In this document: piece by piece, positions 23,440 through 57,485 of the stretch
Numbering within the stretch: the stretch's first letter is position 1
How the letters are laid out: the number at the start of each line of letters is the position of its first letter
Assembly: GCA_050485645.1 (NCBI GenBank)
Contig: JBJHBT010000017.1
Span: 2,752 to 66,751, forward strand
DNA from: Gammaproteobacteria bacterium
Lineage (GTDB): Bacteria > Pseudomonadota > Gammaproteobacteria > Steroidobacterales > Rariloculaceae
Direction of reading: 5' to 3'
DNA length: 64,000 nucleotides
The notes under the pieces: generated by a model
Databases searched by the model: none
What the model saw: only the letters and a program-made list of their open reading frames with translations
What the model was told of the DNA's origin: nothing
Program-made: the position numbers and the translations under genes

Positions 23440-23455
23440 TGTAAACAACCTCACA
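23440..23455. promoter_or_regulatory. CRP-like box TGTAA-N6-TCACA
   Basis: 9/10 match to TGTGA-N6-TCACA, in the murU/lptD intergenic region. Confidence 0.4.
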
Positions 23456-45418: not shown

Positions 45419-46150
45419 TCAGAAGGCGTATTCCAGTGAAACCGACGAGAAAATATCCGTGCGGACCGACCCGGGCGGCACGTCCGAGTCACGCCGCAGG
45501 CGGTACGAGACAACCAGGGCGATGTCCGTGAACAGCCTTGCGCGCAGCGCCGAGACGGATTCCGTGCGGGTATTGGACGAGCCGGATTCCACGACCAGCT
45601 CCTGGGCGAACGAGGTGGTGGAATTGAGCGTCCACTCGTAGTCGAGCGTCGCACGGGCAATCGCCTCTTCCGTGGTGGCGCCGTCGATACGGCGCGCGAA
45701 ACGCCGGCCCAGACCGGCCTCGACGTTGAATTCGTGATTATCGGTATCAACCACCGTGTGGCCATAGCCGAGTGATTCCGAACGCTGCCGTTGATAGGCC
45801 GCGAACCGGTTCTTGTTCCAGTCGAGCGCTGCGAACATGAAGCTGCGCCCCCAGGCGCGGCGCGCCACGTAGCGGCCGGTGTACGCTTCGGTGGTGGTTT
45901 CCTCCTCGCGCGTCGCGCCCACGGCGGACAGATCCCACTCATGACTCCATTCATTCGGCACATAGCGCAGACGCAGCCGTGCGTTGGTATTGGTGCTTTC
46001 CGTGTTACCGGTGGTGGACAGAAAACCCAGGGTTGCGCGGCCCGACACCGTGTCTTCGTCGCCCTGCGCGCTGGCCGCGGTGGCGAGAAACTGGCCCGCC
46101 AGCACAAAGCCGGCCAGGCGTCCGGACAACGCAACAGATCGCTTGAGCAT
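45419..46150 (-). CDS. DUF481/YdiY-like outer-membrane beta-barrel protein
   Basis: Signal peptide, G...TTGNTES, alternating beta-strand pattern, C-terminal LEYAF; SD GGGAG. Confidence 0.8.
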   Translation of the reverse strand: MLKRSVALSGRLAGFVLAGQFLATAASAQGDEDTVSGRATLGFLSTTGNTESTNTNARLRLRYVPNEWSHEWDLSAVGATREEETTTEAYTGRYVARRAWGRSFMFAALDWNKNRFAAYQRQRSESLGYGHTVVDTDNHEFNVEAGLGRRFARRIDGATTEEAIARATLDYEWTLNSTTSFAQELVVESGSSNTRTESVSALRARLFTDIALVVSYRLRRDSDVPPGSVRTDIFSSVSLEYAF

Positions 46151-46237
46151 CAAAAAACTCCCAAAATCGGCGAAAAAACGGCAGAAAGTCCGCTGGATCT
46201 CCCCCTGTACCCGCGGATGGCGCAGTATAATCGACGC

Positions 46238-46876
46238 ATGATGCGCGATTTCAATCGTCTGGATCTGCTTCTGGCGGTCGCCGACGATGCCCTGCGAACG
46301 CTCACAACGCGGCCGCACCCGGCACGACCGGACCCTGCCGTCGGCCATGCCGATGGCGACATGTCCGCGATCGAACGCGATCTCAGCGCCTCGCTGATGC
46401 GTGTCAATCACGCCGGCGAAATTTCCGCCCAGGCGCTGTACACGGGTCAGGCGCTTACCGCCCGGGCAGCCGACACGCGTGCCGTGCTCCAGGCAGCGGC
46501 GCTGGAGGAACGCGACCACCTTGCGTGGTGCGCCCGACGCATCGATGAACTGGGTGGCCGCATCAGTCTGCTGGCGCCGCTCTGGTACACCGGCAGCGTC
46601 ACGCTGGGCGCGCTCGCCGGGCTGGCCGGCGACCGGGCCAGCCTCGGGTTCGTCGCGGAAACCGAGCGGCAGGTCGAAGCGCATCTGCACGACCATCTGG
46701 AAAAACTTCCCGAACAGGATCAGAAAAGCCGGGCCATACTGGAACAGATGGCCGACGATGAGGCCCGACATGGAGCGACGGCACGCCTGGCCGGCGGCGC
46801 CGATCTGCCCGTGCCGGTACGCCTCCTGATGAAGGCAGGCGGCGAAATACTGCGCAAGACCGCGCTGCACCTGTGA
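46238..46876 (+). CDS. coq7: Demethoxyubiquinone hydroxylase (di-iron, Coq7 type)
   Basis: MRVNHAGE..AQALY.GQ, EE.DHL.WC, ETERQVE.HL, DE..H. TATAAT 6 nt upstream of the ATG. Confidence 0.95.
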   Translation: MMRDFNRLDLLLAVADDALRTLTTRPHPARPDPAVGHADGDMSAIERDLSASLMRVNHAGEISAQALYTGQALTARAADTRAVLQAAALEERDHLAWCARRIDELGGRISLLAPLWYTGSVTLGALAGLAGDRASLGFVAETERQVEAHLHDHLEKLPEQDQKSRAILEQMADDEARHGATARLAGGADLPVPVRLLMKAGGEILRKTALHL

Positions 46877-46887
46877 TCTGAATCACA
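46872..46887. promoter_or_regulatory. Perfect CRP box TGTGA-TCTGAA-TCACA upstream of crp
   Basis: 10/10 core match; downstream TTGTCT(46906)-N16-TTTAAT(46928) promoter candidate. Confidence 0.8.
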
Positions 46888-46964: not shown

Positions 46965-47648
46965 ATGGACGAAGCCCTGAGACCACTGAGCGATATACCG
47001 GCGATCAATCGATTCCTCAGTTATTGCCGTGTGCGCACGATTGCGGCGAAAACCGTGATGATCCACGCTGGCGACCTGCCCGACGTGCTCTATTTCATTG
47101 TCGACGGCTCGGTCGAAGTCATGATCGAGGACGAGGACGGCAACGAAATGGTGCTGGCCTATCTGAACAAGGGCCAGTTCTTTGGTGAGATGGGGCTGTT
47201 CTACGAGCAGCCCACACGCAGCGCCTGGGTCAGAACACGCACCGAGAGCGAAATTGCGGAAATGACTTACCCGCGCTTCCGCCAGATTGCTTCGGAGAGT
47301 CCCGGTCTGATCTTCGAACTGGCAACCCAGCTGGCCACGCGGCTGAATCGCACCAACCGCAAGCTCGGCGATCTGGCATTCGTCGACGTCACCGGTCGCG
47401 TGGCGCACGCGATCATGGATCTGTGCAAGGAACCGGACGCGATGACGCATCCGGAAGGCATGCAGATCAAGGTGTCACGGCAGGAGCTGTCACGTCTCGT
47501 CGGCTGTTCGCGGGAAATGGCGGGTCGGGTGCTGAAGGTGCTTGAGGATCAGGGCCTGGTGCGGGCCAACGGCAAGACCATCGTCGTGTTCAATGCCCGC
47601 CGCGACCCTCCGAAAGCACGCCGGGAAGGGCTGCGCCGCCAGGCGTAA
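46965..47648 (+). CDS. crp: cAMP receptor protein (Crp/Vfr/Clp)
   Basis: cNMP domain (GQFFGEMGL, RSAWVRTRT), LAFVDVTGRVA, HTH RQEL.RLVGCSREM.GRVLK. Confidence 0.95.
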   Translation: MDEALRPLSDIPAINRFLSYCRVRTIAAKTVMIHAGDLPDVLYFIVDGSVEVMIEDEDGNEMVLAYLNKGQFFGEMGLFYEQPTRSAWVRTRTESEIAEMTYPRFRQIASESPGLIFELATQLATRLNRTNRKLGDLAFVDVTGRVAHAIMDLCKEPDAMTHPEGMQIKVSRQELSRLVGCSREMAGRVLKVLEDQGLVRANGKTIVVFNARRDPPKARREGLRRQA

Positions 47649-49526: not shown

Positions 49527-50843
49527 ATGGAACGACTGCGCCGAAAATTCCTGCGATGGCTGTGGCGCTCCGAGCCCCGCAACCGGTTCGAGCAGGTTGC
49601 CACCATCGCAACCCGACTTGCCTTCGCCCTGCTGCGCGATCTCAGGCACGGAGAGCTCAGCCTGCGCGCCATGAGTCTGGTCTACACGACCATGCTCGCC
49701 ATCGTGCCACTGCTGTTTTTCAGTTTCTCGGTGCTGAGGAGCCTGGGCTTTCATCGCCAGCTCGAACCCATGCTGCTGAATTTTCTCGCGCCGCTGGGGC
49801 CGCGCGCGGAGGAGCTGAACGACACGGTCATGAGTTTCGTGGACAACGTCAGCGGCACCGCCCTGGCCAGTGTCAGTCTGGCACTGCTGCTGTACACCGC
49901 GCTGTCCATGGCACAGAAAGTCGAGGAGAGTCTGAACTTCGTCTGGCGAGTGGACCGGCCGCGCAGCTTCGCGCGACGCTTCAGCGAATACCTCACGGTG
50001 ATGATCGCCGGGCCGCTGCTGATGAGCGTGGCGATGGGCATCACGGCGGCGGTCTCCAGCACAGCGCTGATGGAAGCGCTGCGCGCCAGCGAGCCGTTCG
50101 GCAGCTGGCTGGCAGCGCTGACCGCAGTCGTACCCTACACACTGGTGGTGATGGCGTTCGCGTTCCTCTACAAGCTGGTGCCCAACACCCATGTGCGCCT
50201 GCCCGCGGCGCTGGCCGGCGGTCTGCTCGCGGGCATTCTGTGGGCTGGTGGCGGACGCCTGTTTGCGCAGTTCGTCGTCACGGCGACGCGCACCGAAGTC
50301 ATCTATTCGGGTTTCGCGATTGTGATCGTGGCCATGCTGTGGCTGTACCTGTCATGGCTGATTCTTCTGACCGGCGCTCAGCTCGCGTTCTATGTGCAGA
50401 ATCCCGACTACCTGCGTTTCGGACAGCGCACGCCACGGGCATCCAATACGTTGCGTGAACGTCTGGCATTGAACACCATGCTCCTTGTCGCGCAGGACTT
50501 CGGCGCAGCCGGGCGCGGCTGGCGCGATGAGAGTCTGGCGCCGAGGCTGGGTGTGCCGCGCCACATACTGGAACCGGTTACCGCCGCGCTGACATCACGT
50601 GGACTGCTGGTCGCCTCCCGCGAAGGGCAGTGGCTGCCCGGCAGGGATCTGCGCCACATCACCCTGCTGGACGTACTCGCGGCGGTGCGCAGCACGGCGC
50701 TCGACGGCGCCTCTTACCGCGGCCGACACTGGAGCCCGCTTGTCGTGCAACTGGGCGAGCGCATCGATCAGGCGATCGCCACCGAGCTCGGGGAAAAGAC
50801 AATCGCCGATCTCGTCGACGAGGCTACTCGCCCGCAACCGTAA
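49527..50843 (+). CDS. YihY/BrkB-family membrane protein with C-terminal Rrf2-like winged helix
   Basis: AMSLVYTT.LAIVP, LYKLVPNT.V, W.YLSW.ILL.GA; tail ESLA.RLGVP...L...GLL...ITLLDV. Confidence 0.88.
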   Translation: MERLRRKFLRWLWRSEPRNRFEQVATIATRLAFALLRDLRHGELSLRAMSLVYTTMLAIVPLLFFSFSVLRSLGFHRQLEPMLLNFLAPLGPRAEELNDTVMSFVDNVSGTALASVSLALLLYTALSMAQKVEESLNFVWRVDRPRSFARRFSEYLTVMIAGPLLMSVAMGITAAVSSTALMEALRASEPFGSWLAALTAVVPYTLVVMAFAFLYKLVPNTHVRLPAALAGGLLAGILWAGGGRLFAQFVVTATRTEVIYSGFAIVIVAMLWLYLSWLILLTGAQLAFYVQNPDYLRFGQRTPRASNTLRERLALNTMLLVAQDFGAAGRGWRDESLAPRLGVPRHILEPVTAALTSRGLLVASREGQWLPGRDLRHITLLDVLAAVRSTALDGASYRGRHWSPLVVQLGERIDQAIATELGEKTIADLVDEATRPQP

Positions 50844-52155
50844 GGCCGTCGACCAGCACCGAACCGCAGCGAATCGCGCCGCGCGTGTCGCGGTCCGATC
50901 CGATAGCGCGGATATTGCGCAGCATCTCGCCGAGGTTGCCCGCGATCGTGACTTCGCTCACCGGATGACGCACCTCGCCCGACTCGACAAGAAACCCCGC
51001 CGCACCGCGCGAATAGTCACCGGTGACGGTGTTCGCACCCTGCCCCAGCAGTTCACCGATCACGAACACTTCGCCACGATCAGCCATCAGCTGAAGCGGG
51101 TCGTCTTCGGTGGCGCTCACCGTGAGGTTGTGGACGCCACCGGCATTGCCGGTGGTTGCCAGACCCAGCCTTCGCGCCGAATAGCTGGACAGCACATAGC
51201 CCTGCAGTACGCCGTTGCTGACCAGGGCGCGCTGCCGTGTACCCACCCCTTCGGCGTCGTAAGGCGCACTGGCCATGGCACGCGCGATGAACGGGTCCTC
51301 ATCGATGTTGACGAAGTCCGGAAGCACCTGCTGACCGGCGGCACCGAGCAGAAACGATGCCTTGCGGTACTGACTGCTACCGCTGATGGCCGCCACCAGA
51401 TGACTGAACAGGCCGCGCGCCTGCTCCGGAGGAAACAGCACCGGCATCACGCGTGTCTTGAGACGGCGGGCGCCAAGTCTGCGCACCGCGCGCCGGCCGG
51501 CCTCCTCGCCGATCTGCTCCGGCGAGGCAAGCCCCCCGGGCCAGCGCGCCACGTCGTACCAGTAGTCGCGCTCCAGTGAACTGCCGTCGCGCGCCACGAC
51601 GCTGACGCTGATCGAGTGGCTGCTGGTGGGATAGCCACCGAGAAACCCGTGCGAGTTTGCGTAGATGCGCAGACTGCTGCCAGTGGAAAGCGACGCACCT
51701 TCGGAATTGTCGATGCGCCCATCCACCGCGCGAGCCGCCGCCTCGGTGCGTCGCGCCAGCTCCGCCGCCTCGTCCACGTCGATCGGCCACGGGTGACAGA
51801 GATCCAGATCCGGCGCGTCGCCGGCCATCAGCCCGGCATCGGCCAGGCCCGCGTGATGATCGGGCGCCGTGAACCTGGCAATGCTCAGCGCCTTGTCCAC
51901 CGCCTCGGCCACCGCCTCGCGCGTAAACCTGGCCGTACTCGCCGACCCCTTGCGATTGCCCTTGTAGACCGTCACAGCAAGGCCCCGGTCGCGCTGGCGC
52001 TCCACGGATTCCAGTTCACCCATGCGTACCGTAACGTTCAGGCCTTCGTCGAAACTGGCTCCGGCCTCCGCCTGATCAGCACCAAGCTTGCGAGCGCGTT
52101 CCACGGCATCGGCCGCGGCCGCTTCCAGTGACTGGCGGACAGCATCAAGATCCAT
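50824..52155 (-). CDS. pmbA: Metalloprotease PmbA/TldE
   Basis: G..V.VR.GELE.VE..RD, NSEGA, PYDAEG, TG.YSRGA.GF, E.TIAGNL. Confidence 0.93.
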   Translation of the reverse strand: MDLDAVRQSLEAAAADAVERARKLGADQAEAGASFDEGLNVTVRMGELESVERQRDRGLAVTVYKGNRKGSASTARFTREAVAEAVDKALSIARFTAPDHHAGLADAGLMAGDAPDLDLCHPWPIDVDEAAELARRTEAAARAVDGRIDNSEGASLSTGSSLRIYANSHGFLGGYPTSSHSISVSVVARDGSSLERDYWYDVARWPGGLASPEQIGEEAGRRAVRRLGARRLKTRVMPVLFPPEQARGLFSHLVAAISGSSQYRKASFLLGAAGQQVLPDFVNIDEDPFIARAMASAPYDAEGVGTRQRALVSNGVLQGYVLSSYSARRLGLATTGNAGGVHNLTVSATEDDPLQLMADRGEVFVIGELLGQGANTVTGDYSRGAAGFLVESGEVRHPVSEVTIAGNLGEMLRNIRAIGSDRDTRGAIRCGSVLVDGLTVAGE

Positions 52156-52212
52156 TGTGAGAAGGTTTCCGGCGAGATGAGAAGGCCATTCTAACTGCTG
52201 TACAATGCATCG

Positions 52213-52728
52213 ATGAAACCGCAGACGGTCAACCCGCTGGTCGGCGTCATCATGGGGTCGGTATCCGACTGGTCTACGATGCGCCACACAGCCGACACTC
52301 TGGAGTCGCTTTCGATACCACACGAAGTCAGGGTGGTGTCCGCCCATCGCACACCCGATCTGCTGTTCGAGTACGCGGCATCGGCACGCGGGCGCGGACT
52401 GATGGTGCTGATCGCCGGTGCCGGCGGCGCAGCGCATCTGCCCGGCATGACCGCGGCTAAGACGGATCTTCCGGTGCTTGGCGTGCCAGTGGAATCGCGC
52501 GCACTCAACGGCCTGGACTCACTGCTCTCCATCGTGCAGATGCCCGGCGGCATCCCGGTGGCCACGCTGGCCATCGGCAAGCCCGGCGCGATCAATGCGG
52601 CGCTGCTGGCCGCGGCGATACTCGCCGGTCACGATTCCGACATCGCCACGGCGCTGGCCGCATTCCGGCGGAATCAGACCGACAATGTGCTGAGCTGTCC
52701 GGATCCGCGCGATGCCGGTGCCGGCTAG
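52213..52728 (+). CDS. purE: N5-CAIR mutase
   Basis: [42 protein letters not shown] 6 nt upstream of the ATG. Confidence 0.98.
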
Positions 52729-53925: not shown

Positions 53926-55350
53926 ATGTATTGCCAGCTGTTCAAGCTACGCGAGCCGCCGTTCCGACTGACGCCGGATCCGCAGTTCCTTTTCGCGAGC
54001 AAGCAGCATGCCCGCGCGAAAGCCTATATGGAATCCACCATATGGCTGGCGGACGGGTTCGTGGTGGTGACCGGTGAGATCGGCTCCGGAAAGACCACGC
54101 TGATCGAGAGTTTTCTCGACGAGCTTCCCGACGACGTCGTCCTGGCGCATATCAGCCAGACCCAGCTGTCCCCGGTGGAGTTTCTCCAGGCGTTGCTGGT
54201 GGAGTTCGGCTACAAGCCGTTCCACGAACGCAAGATCGAGCTGCTGTCCATGCTGCGCGACTTCCTGGTGGAGCAGTACGCGAACAGGAAGAAGGTTCTG
54301 CTGATCATCGATGAGGCACAGAACCTCTCCCGCAAGGTGCTCGAGGAAGTGCGGATGCTGTCGGGCATCGAAGCGCAGAAGGAAAAGCTCCTGCGCATCA
54401 TTCTCGCCGGCCAGCCGGAGCTTTCCGACAAGCTGGATTCTCCCCGCCTGGAGCAGCTGGCCCAGCGCGTACGCCTGCGCTTTCACCTGAGCACGCTATC
54501 GAAGCGTGAAACCCGCGAGTACATCCGCCACCGCCTTGAAGTCGCCGGTGCGGAGGGACGAAGCATCTTCGACGACGACGCCATCGACATGGTGTTCCGC
54601 TATACCGGCGGCGTGCCCAGGCTCACGAACATTCTCTGTGACACGGCCATGCTGTGCGCATTCGCGGAAGGTCAGGACACCGTCAATGAGGGGCTGATAC
54701 AGTCCGCCGTCGACGAACTCCAGTGGGTGGAGTACACCGAAAGACGTCGCGAAAAGGAACCGCAACTCGAATCCACCGGCCAGTACGAACAGAGCGGCAC
54801 GCTTTCCGCCGGTCGGTTCGAGGTCATGTTCGGTGATCAGTTCGTTACCGAATTCATCGTGCCTTTCGGTCGCAGTGTACTCGGGCGCACTTCCGAGAAT
54901 GACTTCCAGATCCGCAGCAAGTTCGTATCACGACACCACGCGCAGATTACGGCGGAACGTGACAGGATTGTGATCAAGGATCTGAACAGCACCAACGGCA
55001 TCGTGGTGCGTCAGCGCCGGGTCAAGAGCCACGTACTCGCGGATGGCGACCTGATACAGCTTGGTGAGCACAGGCTGCTGTTTCGCCGCATGAACCAGAT
55101 GTCCGCGCCGGCGGCCGACTGGAGCGAGGATGAAGAGCAGGACGAACATTGCGCCACCTATGTTCACGCCGACGATGAACACGGTGTCGACACCCCCGCC
55201 GATGCCGATGCCGATGCCGATGCCGATGCCGATGCCGAATCAGCCAGCGGCCACGATACCGGTGAAGTCAACGCGGGAGCAGAAGAAAAAGCCAGGGAGG
55301 AAGAAGCGAATACCGCCTCCGAACGCGTACTGGAAAAGCAGGCCCGGTAG
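53926..55350 (+). CDS. ExeA/GspA-like AAA ATPase fused to a C-terminal FHA domain and acidic tail
   Basis: PF.LTPDP.FLF, GEIGSGKT, IIDEAQ, GQPEL, GG.PRL.N; FHA motifs LGR...VSRHHA...STNG. Confidence 0.88.
   Translation: MYCQLFKLREPPFRLTPDPQFLFASKQHARAKAYMESTIWLADGFVVVTGEIGSGKTTLIESFLDELPDDVVLAHISQTQLSPVEFLQALLVEFGYKPFHERKIELLSMLRDFLVEQYANRKKVLLIIDEAQNLSRKVLEEVRMLSGIEAQKEKLLRIILAGQPELSDKLDSPRLEQLAQRVRLRFHLSTLSKRETREYIRHRLEVAGAEGRSIFDDDAIDMVFRYTGGVPRLTNILCDTAMLCAFAEGQDTVNEGLIQSAVDELQWVEYTERRREKEPQLESTGQYEQSGTLSAGRFEVMFGDQFVTEFIVPFGRSVLGRTSENDFQIRSKFVSRHHAQITAERDRIVIKDLNSTNGIVVRQRRVKSHVLADGDLIQLGEHRLLFRRMNQMSAPAADWSEDEEQDEHCATYVHADDEHGVDTPADADADADADADAESASGHDTGEVNAGAEEKAREEEANTASERVLEKQAR
55198..55233 (+). 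repeat. (GCCGAT)6 in-frame microsatellite encoding (AD)6
   Basis: Six perfect copies followed by GCCGAA. Confidence 0.95.
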
Positions 55351-55368
55351 CCTGAGTCCGACAGGCCG

Positions 55369-55647
55369 CTAGCGTCGACGCACATCCTGTCGCGACGGCG
55401 TCGCACCGCCCGACTGCCGACCCGAAGCCTCGGCGACGGGCCGTCCTGACGCCTCGTGTCGCGCCCTGAGCATGTGTTTCAGGAGTGAGGGCTCCCAGGC
55501 ATCGATAGCCAGCCGCGCACGGTCCTCGTGGCTCAGCCCTCTGATCAGCGTGTCATCGCCGGGGGCCTTTCCGCCCGACGCCCTGGCATCACCAGCCTGT
55601 CTGCCGGAACTCCCGGTCTGTCTGCGGAGATTCGATGCGGATTTCAT
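55369..55647 (-). CDS. Possible 92-aa orphan protein
   Basis: Open frame filling the gap; central DTLIRGLSHEDRARLAIDAWEPSLLKHML looks helical. No SD and several AGA/AGG codons. Confidence 0.35.
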   Translation of the reverse strand: MKSASNLRRQTGSSGRQAGDARASGGKAPGDDTLIRGLSHEDRARLAIDAWEPSLLKHMLRARHEASGRPVAEASGRQSGGATPSRQDVRRR

Positions 55648-55699: not shown

Positions 55700-55873
55700 C
55701 TAGTTGCGACGGCGGCCAAGCAGCATGCCGAGCAGCCGTACAAAGGGATTCTGCTCCAACCCGTCGACGCTCAGATCCGGGTCGTTGTCGGCCTGGCTGG
55801 CGAGCCACTGCTCGTCGGCACCCGACAGCGGCGGGCGAAACTCCAGGTCCGTCATCGTGTCGTCATATCGCAT
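55700..55873 (-). CDS. Unannotated 57-aa protein MRYDDTMTDLEFRPPLSGADEQWLASQADNDPDLSVDGLEQNPFVRLLGMLLGRRRN
   Basis: Manually translated (below the ORF-track cutoff); GC3-rich codons; sits behind a class II CRP promoter. Confidence 0.65.
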   Translation of the reverse strand: MRYDDTMTDLEFRPPLSGADEQWLASQADNDPDLSVDGLEQNPFVRLLGMLLGRRRN

Positions 55874-55907
55874 CGCATGCCTGCCGTGAACCAGTGGGTG
55901 TCTGTGA

Positions 55908-55950
55908 AAGGTAGGCTCATGGCCGGATCAATGCAGTGAACCACATCACA
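55908..55950 (-). promoter_or_regulatory. Class II CRP-dependent promoter (box TGTGA-TGTGGT-TCACT plus -10 TACCTT)
   Basis: The box at 55935-55950 (9/10) is centred at -41.5 when TACCTT (55913-55908) is taken as -12..-7, which puts the start site at about 55901. Confidence 0.65.
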
Positions 55951-55988: not shown

Positions 55989-57485
55989 TCAGGTCTGTGT
56001 ACCGCCCACCGTCAGCGAGTCCACCTTCAGGGTCGGCTGACCGACGCCCACGGGCACGGACTGCCCCTCCTTGCCGCAGACACCAATGCCGGGGTCCAGC
56101 TCCAGGTCATTGCCGACCATCGACACCATGGTCAGCACCTGTGGCCCGTTGCCGATCAGCATGGCGCCCTTGATCGGCGCACCCTTGCGGCCGTTCTCGA
56201 TCATGTACGCCTCGCTGGCCGAGAACACGAACTTGCCCGACGTGATGTCGACCTGCCCACCGCCGAAGTTCGGCGCGTAGATACCACGCGACACCGACGC
56301 GATGATTTCCTCCGGATCGTAGGACCCGGGGAGCATGTAGGTGTTGGTCATGCGCGGCATCGGCATATGCGCATAGGATTCGCGTCGCGCATTGCCGGTG
56401 GGTGATACGCCCATCAGCCGCGCATTGAGCTTGTCCTGCATGTAACTGCGCAGCACGCCATTCTCGATCAGCGTATTGCAGCGCGACGGCGTCCCCTCGT
56501 CGTCGATGTTCAGCGACCCGCGACGGCCCGGCAGCGTACCGTCGTCCACCACGGTGCACTGCGACGCTGCGACACGTTCGCCGATGCGACCGGCGAACGC
56601 CGACGTGCCCTTGCGATTGAAGTCGCCTTCCAGACCGTGGCCGATCGCCTCATGGAGCAGCACGCCCGGCCAGCCGGCGCCCAGCACCACCGGCAGCACA
56701 CCGGCCGGTGCCGCGATCGCCTCCATGTTCACCGTTGCCTGACGCACCGCTTCGGCAGCCATGGCCGCCCGATAGTCGGCCGACGTGAACATCGTGAAAT
56801 CCGTACGGCCGCCGCCACCGGCAAACCCCTGCTCGCGTCGGCCGTTGCGCTCCATGATCACGGACAAGTTGAGCCGCACCAACGGGCGCACGTCGGCGGC
56901 CAGCGTACCGTCCGATCCGCGCACCAGGATCACTTCGTAAACGCCGGCAAGACTGCCTGTCACCTGCACCACCCGTTCGTCGAGTGCCCTGGCGCGACGA
57001 TCCAGATCGGCCAGCAGTTCAACCTTTTCGCTGTCAGTCAGACTGCCCAGCGGATCCATCGCCGGATACAGCGACCGGCCACCATCGCGACGCGCCACCT
57101 GATAGCTGCCGTCACCGCGAGTGCGCGCGATGGCACGCGCCGCCCCCACCGCTTCCATCAGCGATGAAGTATCGAGCTGATCGGAGTACGCGAATCCGGT
57201 GCGATCGCCGCTGACGGCACGCACACCCACACCCTGATCCACGCTGTGCACGCCTTCGCGCACGATGCCGTCGTCCACGGACCATGCTTCATAGCGCGTC
57301 ATCTGCAGATACAGATCGGCATAGTCGAGCTGGCGTGACATCAGCGCACCCAGCGCCCTGTCGAGCGCATGCAGGTCCAGCTCCGCCGGCGCCAGCACCA
57401 GCTGTTCGGCCAGTGACAGTGTCTCGGCCCCGGTTGGCGGGGTCGCGGCGATGGTCATGGTGGAATTCTGCGTGCTCATTGGCAT
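55989..57485 (-). CDS. tldD: Metalloprotease TldD
   Basis: [62 protein letters not shown]. Confidence 0.97.

Follow-up and report, generated by a model that had tools for sequence, protein, structure and literature searches.

A small gene, here called s1, lies directly downstream of tldD on the minus strand of a 64,000-nucleotide (nt) stretch (the window) of contig JBJHBT010000017.1, positions 2,752 to 66,751, from a Rariloculaceae gammaproteobacterium (assembly GCA_050485645.1). With good confidence, window segment 55950..55369 (−) can be read as a small transcription unit under a predicted class II CRP-dependent sigma-70 promoter, and CRP, the cyclic AMP (cAMP) receptor protein, very likely activates s1, which encodes a 57-residue protein. 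On the evidence of sequence comparison, the gene is coding, its promoter architecture is conserved and a CRP is present in the window. The s1 promoter would represent a new example of the class II type, with an exceptionally well conserved architecture.

Promoter architecture of s1

Class II CRP promoters, as at the gal promoter, carry a CRP site at −41.5 and engage activating regions 2 and 3 (AR2 and AR3) of the activator (PMC7192510). At s1, the CRP-type site TGTGATGTGGTTCACT (55950..55935) is followed after 21 nt by the hexamer TACCTT, and a start placed about 7 nt past this hexamer sets the box center at −41.5, the predicted class II geometry. The −35 position, CTGCAT, matches TTGACA at only two of six bases, and the lack of a good −35 element is expected of an activator-dependent promoter. 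An earlier note on this DNA, made from the sequence of the window, had claimed the 9/10 box, the class II spacing and a promoter separate from that of tldD, and had proposed that the box be sought in relatives; each of these claims finds support in the comparison below.

A (T/C)GTGA-N6-TCAC(T/C) box is present 69–77 nt before the ATG in 12 of the first 13 s1 loci, with TAnnnT 21 nt beyond the box in 11 of them and 22 nt beyond it in L083. For a control scan of both strands of 84 loci (1.43 Mb), the composite element was defined as a box matching at least eight of ten positions with TAnnnT exactly 21 nt on. It occurs 15 times, 12 of them directly upstream of s1 and three elsewhere, and only once in the whole window, at s1. 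The addition of 80 further metagenome loci yielded 84 distinct s1 upstream regions, of which 82 contain a box of at least 8/10 (9/10 in 70) and 81 of these 82 have TAnnnT at exactly 21 nt. Box, hexamer and spacing are also kept in the divergent window-type clade and in a third clade.

Information content across these regions approaches 2 bits only at TGTGA (−49..−45), TCAC (−38..−35), T-12, A-11 and T-7, with 1.6–2.0 bits per position in the box and 1.9–2.0 bits at the three hexamer positions; variation is seen in the N6 and over most of the spacer. Nearly all family members end the box in T or C instead of A. The box is identical in the window, in the soil-metagenome relative L081 and in the congener L165 (GCA_050485545.1), and the hexamer reads TACCTT in L081 and TACATT in L165. 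The window and L081 show eight intergenic differences, all of them outside box and hexamer, and the comparison with L165 gives a like picture. Among close relatives, the tldD-to-box region carries substitutions and a 13-nt insertion or deletion (indel), whereas the stretch from box to ATG is free of indels. Loci that have s3, a membrane-protein gene of the same neighborhood, and no s1 (L004, L017 and L038) have no box either, which ties the box to s1.

The palindrome was also considered as an RNA hairpin or terminator and rejected: the fold z-score is −0.53, and none of the 12 deviating inner pairs is compensatory. Ordinary folding and the lack of compensatory changes indicate that the conserved object is a protein-binding DNA site and not a hairpin. 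Searched at a permissive threshold, Rfam yielded nothing beyond a chance hit on a eukaryotic element.

Woeseiaceae-type loci (L008, L032, L015 and others) have two further elements of ~1 bit each, a TTCACA half-site-like element at −63..−58 and a conserved spacer, ATTCAACATAT, at −31..−21, both of which the window-type clade lacks. Together they might constitute the site of a second regulator.

Coding evidence for s1

The translation of s1, MRYDDTMTDLEFRPPLSGADEQWLASQADNDPDLSVDGLEQNPFVRLLGMLLGRRRN, derives from a 57-codon open reading frame (ORF) that the earlier note had placed at 55873 to 55700, where it is indeed found. GC content by codon position is 0.71/0.40/0.83 in s1 and 0.68/0.49/0.80 in tldD, while overlapping ORFs in other frames differ from this pattern. 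The ratio of nonsynonymous to synonymous differences (pN/pS) is 0.18–0.21 against the close relatives L081 and L165, compared with 0.10 for tldD, and nine of the 15 nucleotide differences from L081 lie at third codon positions. The start codon and Shine-Dalgarno sequence are kept among relatives, with GGAGG or AGGA at the equivalent place. To judge from these comparisons, s1 is a real, coding gene under purifying selection. The feature stands above chance because of its codon-position GC, its family conservation, its pN/pS and the fixed spacing between box and −10 hexamer.

The s1 protein family

A single-sequence search with s1 found one relative only, 93% identical. A tblastn search of 80 tldD loci taken from species-representative genomes revealed that tldD is immediately followed by a homologous small ORF in Woeseiaceae and in unclassified gammaproteobacterial metagenome-assembled genomes, and a hidden Markov model search added two further loci. 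A word-index profile search retrieved 1,557 proteins (clusters at 90% identity) at E≤0.01, stand-alone, ~55–61 residues long and devoid of Pfam domains. When 1.84 billion representatives were searched exhaustively with HMMER, 99 clusters at 50% identity emerged, all of 30–115 residues, indicating that s1 never occurs as part of a larger protein. Amino-acid conservation extends across lineages whose DNA cannot be aligned. GenBank names the relatives only "hypothetical protein". Comparison of s1 and three relatives with Pfam, NCBIfam, PADLOC and PHROGs gave zero matches, a PDB sequence search with s1 gave no significant match (best E-value 0.75), and a literature search for the family found no paper. 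As far as these searches reach, s1 belongs to a large, uncharacterized and widespread family of stand-alone small proteins of Woeseiaceae and related uncultured Gammaproteobacteria. The small protein that the earlier note had predicted, for which it proposed a tBLASTn conservation check, is therefore borne out by its homologs after tldD in distant lineages and by selection on the reading frame.

Near-invariant positions among 292 distinct sequences are T6, T8, E9, D11, P32, D33, L34, V36, G38, L39, S42, S45 and R46, together with hydrophobic positions of the C-terminal helix. They fall into an N-terminal F-(D/E)-x-T-x-T-E-x-D motif, a central PDLxVDGL motif and a C-terminal amphipathic helix. 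At position 6, 278 of 278 sequences have Thr and none has Ser, with Glu or Asp at +3 in 277 of 279; position 8 is Thr in 269 of 279, with Asp or Glu at +3 in 276 of 279. The helix reads (S)xLSRLLGLFG in most members and FVRLLGMLLGRRRN in the window.

The acidic N-terminal part and basic amphipathic C-terminal helix described in the earlier note are evident in s1, whose first 40 residues carry a net charge of −9 and whose C-terminal tail, with a charge of +4, includes the 11-mer of highest amphipathicity in the protein (hydrophobic moment, muH, 0.57). The helix is a feature of the whole family, as judged from residue conservation and from the hydrophobic moment, which is maximal in the last 15 residues in four members (muH 0.48–0.71). 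An AlphaFold2 model built on a 60-sequence alignment has a predicted local distance difference test (pLDDT) score of 67 and places helices at residues 17–29 and 43–52, the latter being its most confident stretch, with coil elsewhere. Acidic and for the most part disordered, the s1 peptide carries the three conserved elements named above.

MinD and FtsA carry C-terminal membrane-targeting amphipathic helices. s1 shares with them a short, basic C-terminal amphipathic helix with small terminal residues (RLLGLFGxG, compared with KRLFGG in MinD), but it has no ATPase domain and no family relationship to either protein, so the likeness is one of style and not of homology. Membrane targeting of s1, drawn from amphipathicity, is plausible. 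The LLGLF segment resembles the beta-clamp-binding QLxLF motif, although its Phe is kept neither in all clades nor in the window; a likeness to the McbA leader peptide is too short to mean anything. The possibility that s1 is a precursor of a ribosomally synthesized and post-translationally modified peptide, or a dedicated TldD/PmbA substrate, was rejected: the protein has no Cys-, Ser- or Gly-rich core and ends 5–10 residues past the helix, and no modification enzymes are adjacent, the neighbors being a CN-hydrolase, tldD, the FHA ATPase and purEK.

The CRP/Vfr orthologue

The likely regulator is encoded 8 kb from s1 in the window (Table 1). It scores 310 bits against the NCBIfam CRP equivalog NF008732 (cut-off 266), and Pfam assigns cNMP_binding and HTH_Crp_2. 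Among solved structures, it scores 258 bits against Pseudomonas aeruginosa Vfr, 253 against E. coli CRP and 203 against Xanthomonas Clp, which is cAMP-independent. R180, E181 and R185, the residues of DNA recognition, match E. coli CRP exactly. The cAMP pocket retains G71, E72, R82, S83 and T127 and has Asn in place of S128. With residue lists taken from PMC7192510, eight of nine positions of activating region 1 (AR1) are identical, AR2 is basic (H19R, H21R, K101R) and AR3 is acidic. The perfect box upstream of the gene, TGTGATCTGAATCACA, suggests autoregulation of crp; it overlaps the stop of a COQ7-family ORF (45791–46876). A third CRP-like box, TGTAAACAACCTCACA, with one mismatch, lies at window positions 23440–23455.

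Gene neighborhood

The conserved gene order is yhdP, CN-hydrolase, tldD, s1, (s2), s3, the convergent AAA_22-FHA gene, purK, purE and pmbA. tldD precedes s1 in 58 of 59 metagenome loci, and the intergenic gap in the window is 115 nt. The genes pmbA and tldD, which encode the two subunits of one protease, flank an island of purE, purK, the FHA ATPase, s2 and s1.

Table 1. Features of the s1 locus and of the likely regulator gene (window coordinates)
Feature	Position	Strand	Remarks
CRP-type site TGTGATGTGGTTCACT	55935..55950	−	9/10 to TGTGA-N6-TCACA; center 55942.5
−10 hexamer TACCTT (TAnnnT)	55908..55913	−	21 nt after box
Predicted transcription start	~55901	−	~7 nt past −10 hexamer, from hexamer position
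Weak Shine-Dalgarno GGCAGG	55880..55885	−	6 nt before s1 ATG
s1, small protein gene	55700..55873	−	57 residues; acidic N-terminus, PDLxVDGL motif, C-terminal amphipathic helix
s2, second small gene	55369..55647	−	92 residues; basic N-terminus, AIDAWEPSLL motif
Candidate weak terminator hairpin CAGGCUACCGGGCCUG, then CUUUU	55334..55354	−	just after s2; uncertain
AAA_22 + FHA ATPase gene	53926..55350	+	convergent to s1/s2
tldD	55989..57485	−	upstream same-strand neighbor of s1
pmbA (tldE)	50824–52437	−	same strand as tldD
crp/vfr orthologue, likely regulator	46965..47648	+	53% identical to E. coli CRP
Perfect CRP box TGTGATCTGAATCACA	46872..46887	+	78 nt upstream of crp start codon

The second small gene, s2, is new here and absent from the earlier note. 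Its DAWEPSLL core is invariant, and it is present in loci of the window-type clade (L002, L086–L092, L106, L082, L083 and L165). Against L165, s2 keeps MKxAxNxRRQ at its start and RQD(V/I)RRR at its end, and pN/pS is 0.29. s2 is probably co-transcribed with s1, from which it is separated by 52 nt with no recognized terminator between them. The two proteins share a (V/I)D(G/A)(L/W)ExSLLxxxL stretch, for which the hhalign profile-profile match is weak (23% probability). In L081, a 52-nt deletion affects the poorly conserved N-terminal part of s2 (window 55564–55615) and a 23-nt insertion lies at the 3′ end of s1 (window 55709), pointing to a junction prone to indels. The hairpin at the end of s2 comes from an RNA fold with an unremarkable z-score of −0.71, and the consensus scan is silent there. 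The gap between the end of s2 and the convergent gene measures 18 nt (window 55351–55368).

s3 encodes a 72-residue two-helix membrane protein (MWLSRPxYExLP...LKRRD; L082 6450–6668, L008 5831–6028); 72 of 72 metagenome loci have it after s1. The gene was looked for in the window and in the congener L165 and is absent from both, and an independent 615-bp metagenome contig spans 55266–55880 without it. Woeseiaceae loci show a terminator-like hairpin after s1 and a separate sigma-70-like promoter for s3, which together indicate that s1 is a transcription unit of its own there.

The convergent gene encodes an ExeA/PEP-CTERM-ATPase-like AAA_22 protein with a canonical FHA domain (GR...SRxH...N) and an acidic (DA)n tail. 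Of the 80 tldD loci, every one that bears s1 and has enough flank also has the FHA ATPase, which only four of the ~66 loci without s1 possess; in the metagenome set, the convergent ATPase gene occurs in 43 of 44 loci. The (DA)n repeat (~55176–55263) draws many unrelated metagenome contigs.

Proposed mechanism

In the proposed mechanism, the cAMP-bound CRP/Vfr orthologue would bind TGTGATGTGGTTCACT, centered 41.5 bp upstream of the start, where it would take the place of the missing −35 element and recruit RNA polymerase to TACCTT through AR1, AR2 and AR3. Transcription would begin near 55901 and produce an mRNA with a leader of ~28 nt that encodes s1 and, in this lineage, also s2. s1 may be induced by carbon limitation and act as a small regulator, with the C-terminal helix docked either to the inner membrane, at its cytoplasmic face, or to a partner protein, and with the acidic N-terminus engaging a target.

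Evaluation of alternative interpretations

Several observations weigh against this mechanism. On its own, the s1 ORF does not rise above chance in the window, whose 65% GC DNA is so ORF-rich that 61 ORFs of at least 30 residues overlap one 5.5-kb stretch. The box taken by itself is no more exceptional: the window has three boxes with at most one mismatch where 1.5 would be expected, a number reached in 20 of 100 shuffles. The box of family locus L003 matches at only 7/10, and the 84 promoters are not fully independent, since many of them belong to related Woeseiaceae. A consensus sigma-70 promoter and terminator scan reported nothing in the s1 region and so lends no independent support, although such a blank is expected for an activator-dependent promoter. 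RNA runs were searched for sequence of the s1 region, and none contains it; the −41.5 placement assumes a start 7 nt after the hexamer. For the protein, the structure model is of low confidence, the window helix LLGMLLGRRRN deviates from the family consensus LLGLFGxG, and the argument for membrane targeting is one of amphipathicity.

One rival reading takes the promoter for an accident, with box and hexamer matching by chance and s1 expressed by read-through from tldD. The shuffle result and the short tldD-s1 gap, in which no terminator is recognized, speak for this idea; the composite is, however, found in 81 of 84 upstream regions against a background of three per 1.43 Mb, and indels accumulate between tldD and the box but not between the box and the ATG, so that this explanation is scarcely credible. 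Nearly as improbable is a CRP-controlled non-coding or dual-function RNA whose ORF is translated incidentally or not at all. There is precedent for small RNAs under CRP control and for small RNAs that double as messages for small proteins, AzuCR being an example (PMC8915982), but the s1 family is conserved at the amino-acid level where its DNA cannot be aligned, pN/pS is ~0.2, third positions take nine of the 15 differences, the ATG and Shine-Dalgarno sequence are conserved, Rfam gives no match and folding is unremarkable. A different user of the box, either another CRP/FNR paralogue or a nucleotide-independent Clp-type protein, or CRP acting as a repressor or roadblock, is unlikely. The 64 kb of genome visible leave room for further paralogues, the T or C at the last box position and the Asn at S128 of the cAMP pocket could point to another regulator, and the TTCACA element and conserved spacer of Woeseiaceae-type loci could bind something else. 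Against this, the CRP of the window is at equivalog level and nearer to Vfr and CRP than to Clp, its recognition-helix residues are those of E. coli CRP, and a fixed 21-nt spacing with no usable −35 element is the geometry of an activator and not of a repressor.

The function of the C-terminal helix is less settled, and it is quite possible that it serves as a protein-binding peptide and that s1 is a soluble adaptor or inhibitor, with the FHA ATPase, s3, TldD/PmbA or another protein as partner. Conservation residue by residue (S42, S45, R46, G49, F51, G52) goes beyond generic amphipathicity, a comparable segment, (I/V)D(A/G)(W/L)E(P/x)SLLxxxL, occurs in s2, and s1 is strictly syntenic with s3 and the FHA ATPase. 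The weakness of the s1-s2 profile match counts against this interpretation, as does the window lineage, which lost s3 and kept s1, so that s3 is not an obligatory partner. A more specific proposal, which we regard as doubtful, is that s1 is a CRP-induced phosphothreonine bait: Thr6 (and Thr8) would be phosphorylated and bound by the FHA domain of the ExeA-like AAA+ ATPase, and the helix would tether the complex to the inner membrane. It is suggested by the fact that T6 is never Ser, by the acidic residues at +3 of T6 and T8 and by the constant presence of the FHA neighbor; a search of the window for Hanks-type kinase motifs found none. If true, a 57-residue adaptor would link cAMP signaling to Ser/Thr-phosphorylation signaling.

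Comparison with known systems

The predicted CRP-activated s1 promoter resembles E. coli galP1 (PMC7192510) in the predicted −41.5 position of its CRP site over a poor −35 element, its sigma-70 −10 hexamer and the conserved AR1, basic AR2 and acidic AR3 of the cognate activator. It differs in belonging to an uncultured high-GC gammaproteobacterium, in that start and CRP site are predicted from sequence here, and in the outermost 3′ box base, which is T or C instead of A across the s1 family.

Two small proteins of E. coli offer partial parallels. YtfK is a small protein whose gene is directly activated by cAMP-CRP in carbon starvation (PMC8600398). Like YtfK, s1 is a stand-alone small protein with predicted cAMP-CRP activation and presumably binds a larger protein; YtfK has no sequence similarity to s1 and a known target, SpoT, and ytfK has its CRP site at one of two promoters, at a distance of 229 bp from the start codon and thus far upstream (PMC8600398). 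AzuC is a 28-residue amphipathic, membrane-associated small protein that is repressed by CRP (PMC8915982). Both are small proteins with an amphipathic helix that is shown or proposed to act at the membrane and with expression linked, by prediction for s1, to the carbon source via CRP, but AzuC is CRP-repressed, half the size of s1, devoid of an acidic N-terminal domain, encoded by a dual-function RNA and not homologous to s1.

Implications

The analysis adds an uncharacterized, widely distributed small-protein family, found mostly in Woeseiaceae and related sediment and soil Gammaproteobacteria, that comes with an unusually clear regulatory prediction. New here are s2, the loss of s3 in the window lineage and the association of the FHA ATPase with the s1 family. 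Genes such as s1 and s2 are easily overlooked in the annotation of high-GC genomes. The constant spacing of box and −10 hexamer in ~80 lineages suggests that CRP-type catabolite control with E. coli-like geometry operates in uncultured groups. s1 may be usable as a CRP-regulon marker in metatranscriptomes and would provide a compact case of a small protein responding to carbon limitation.

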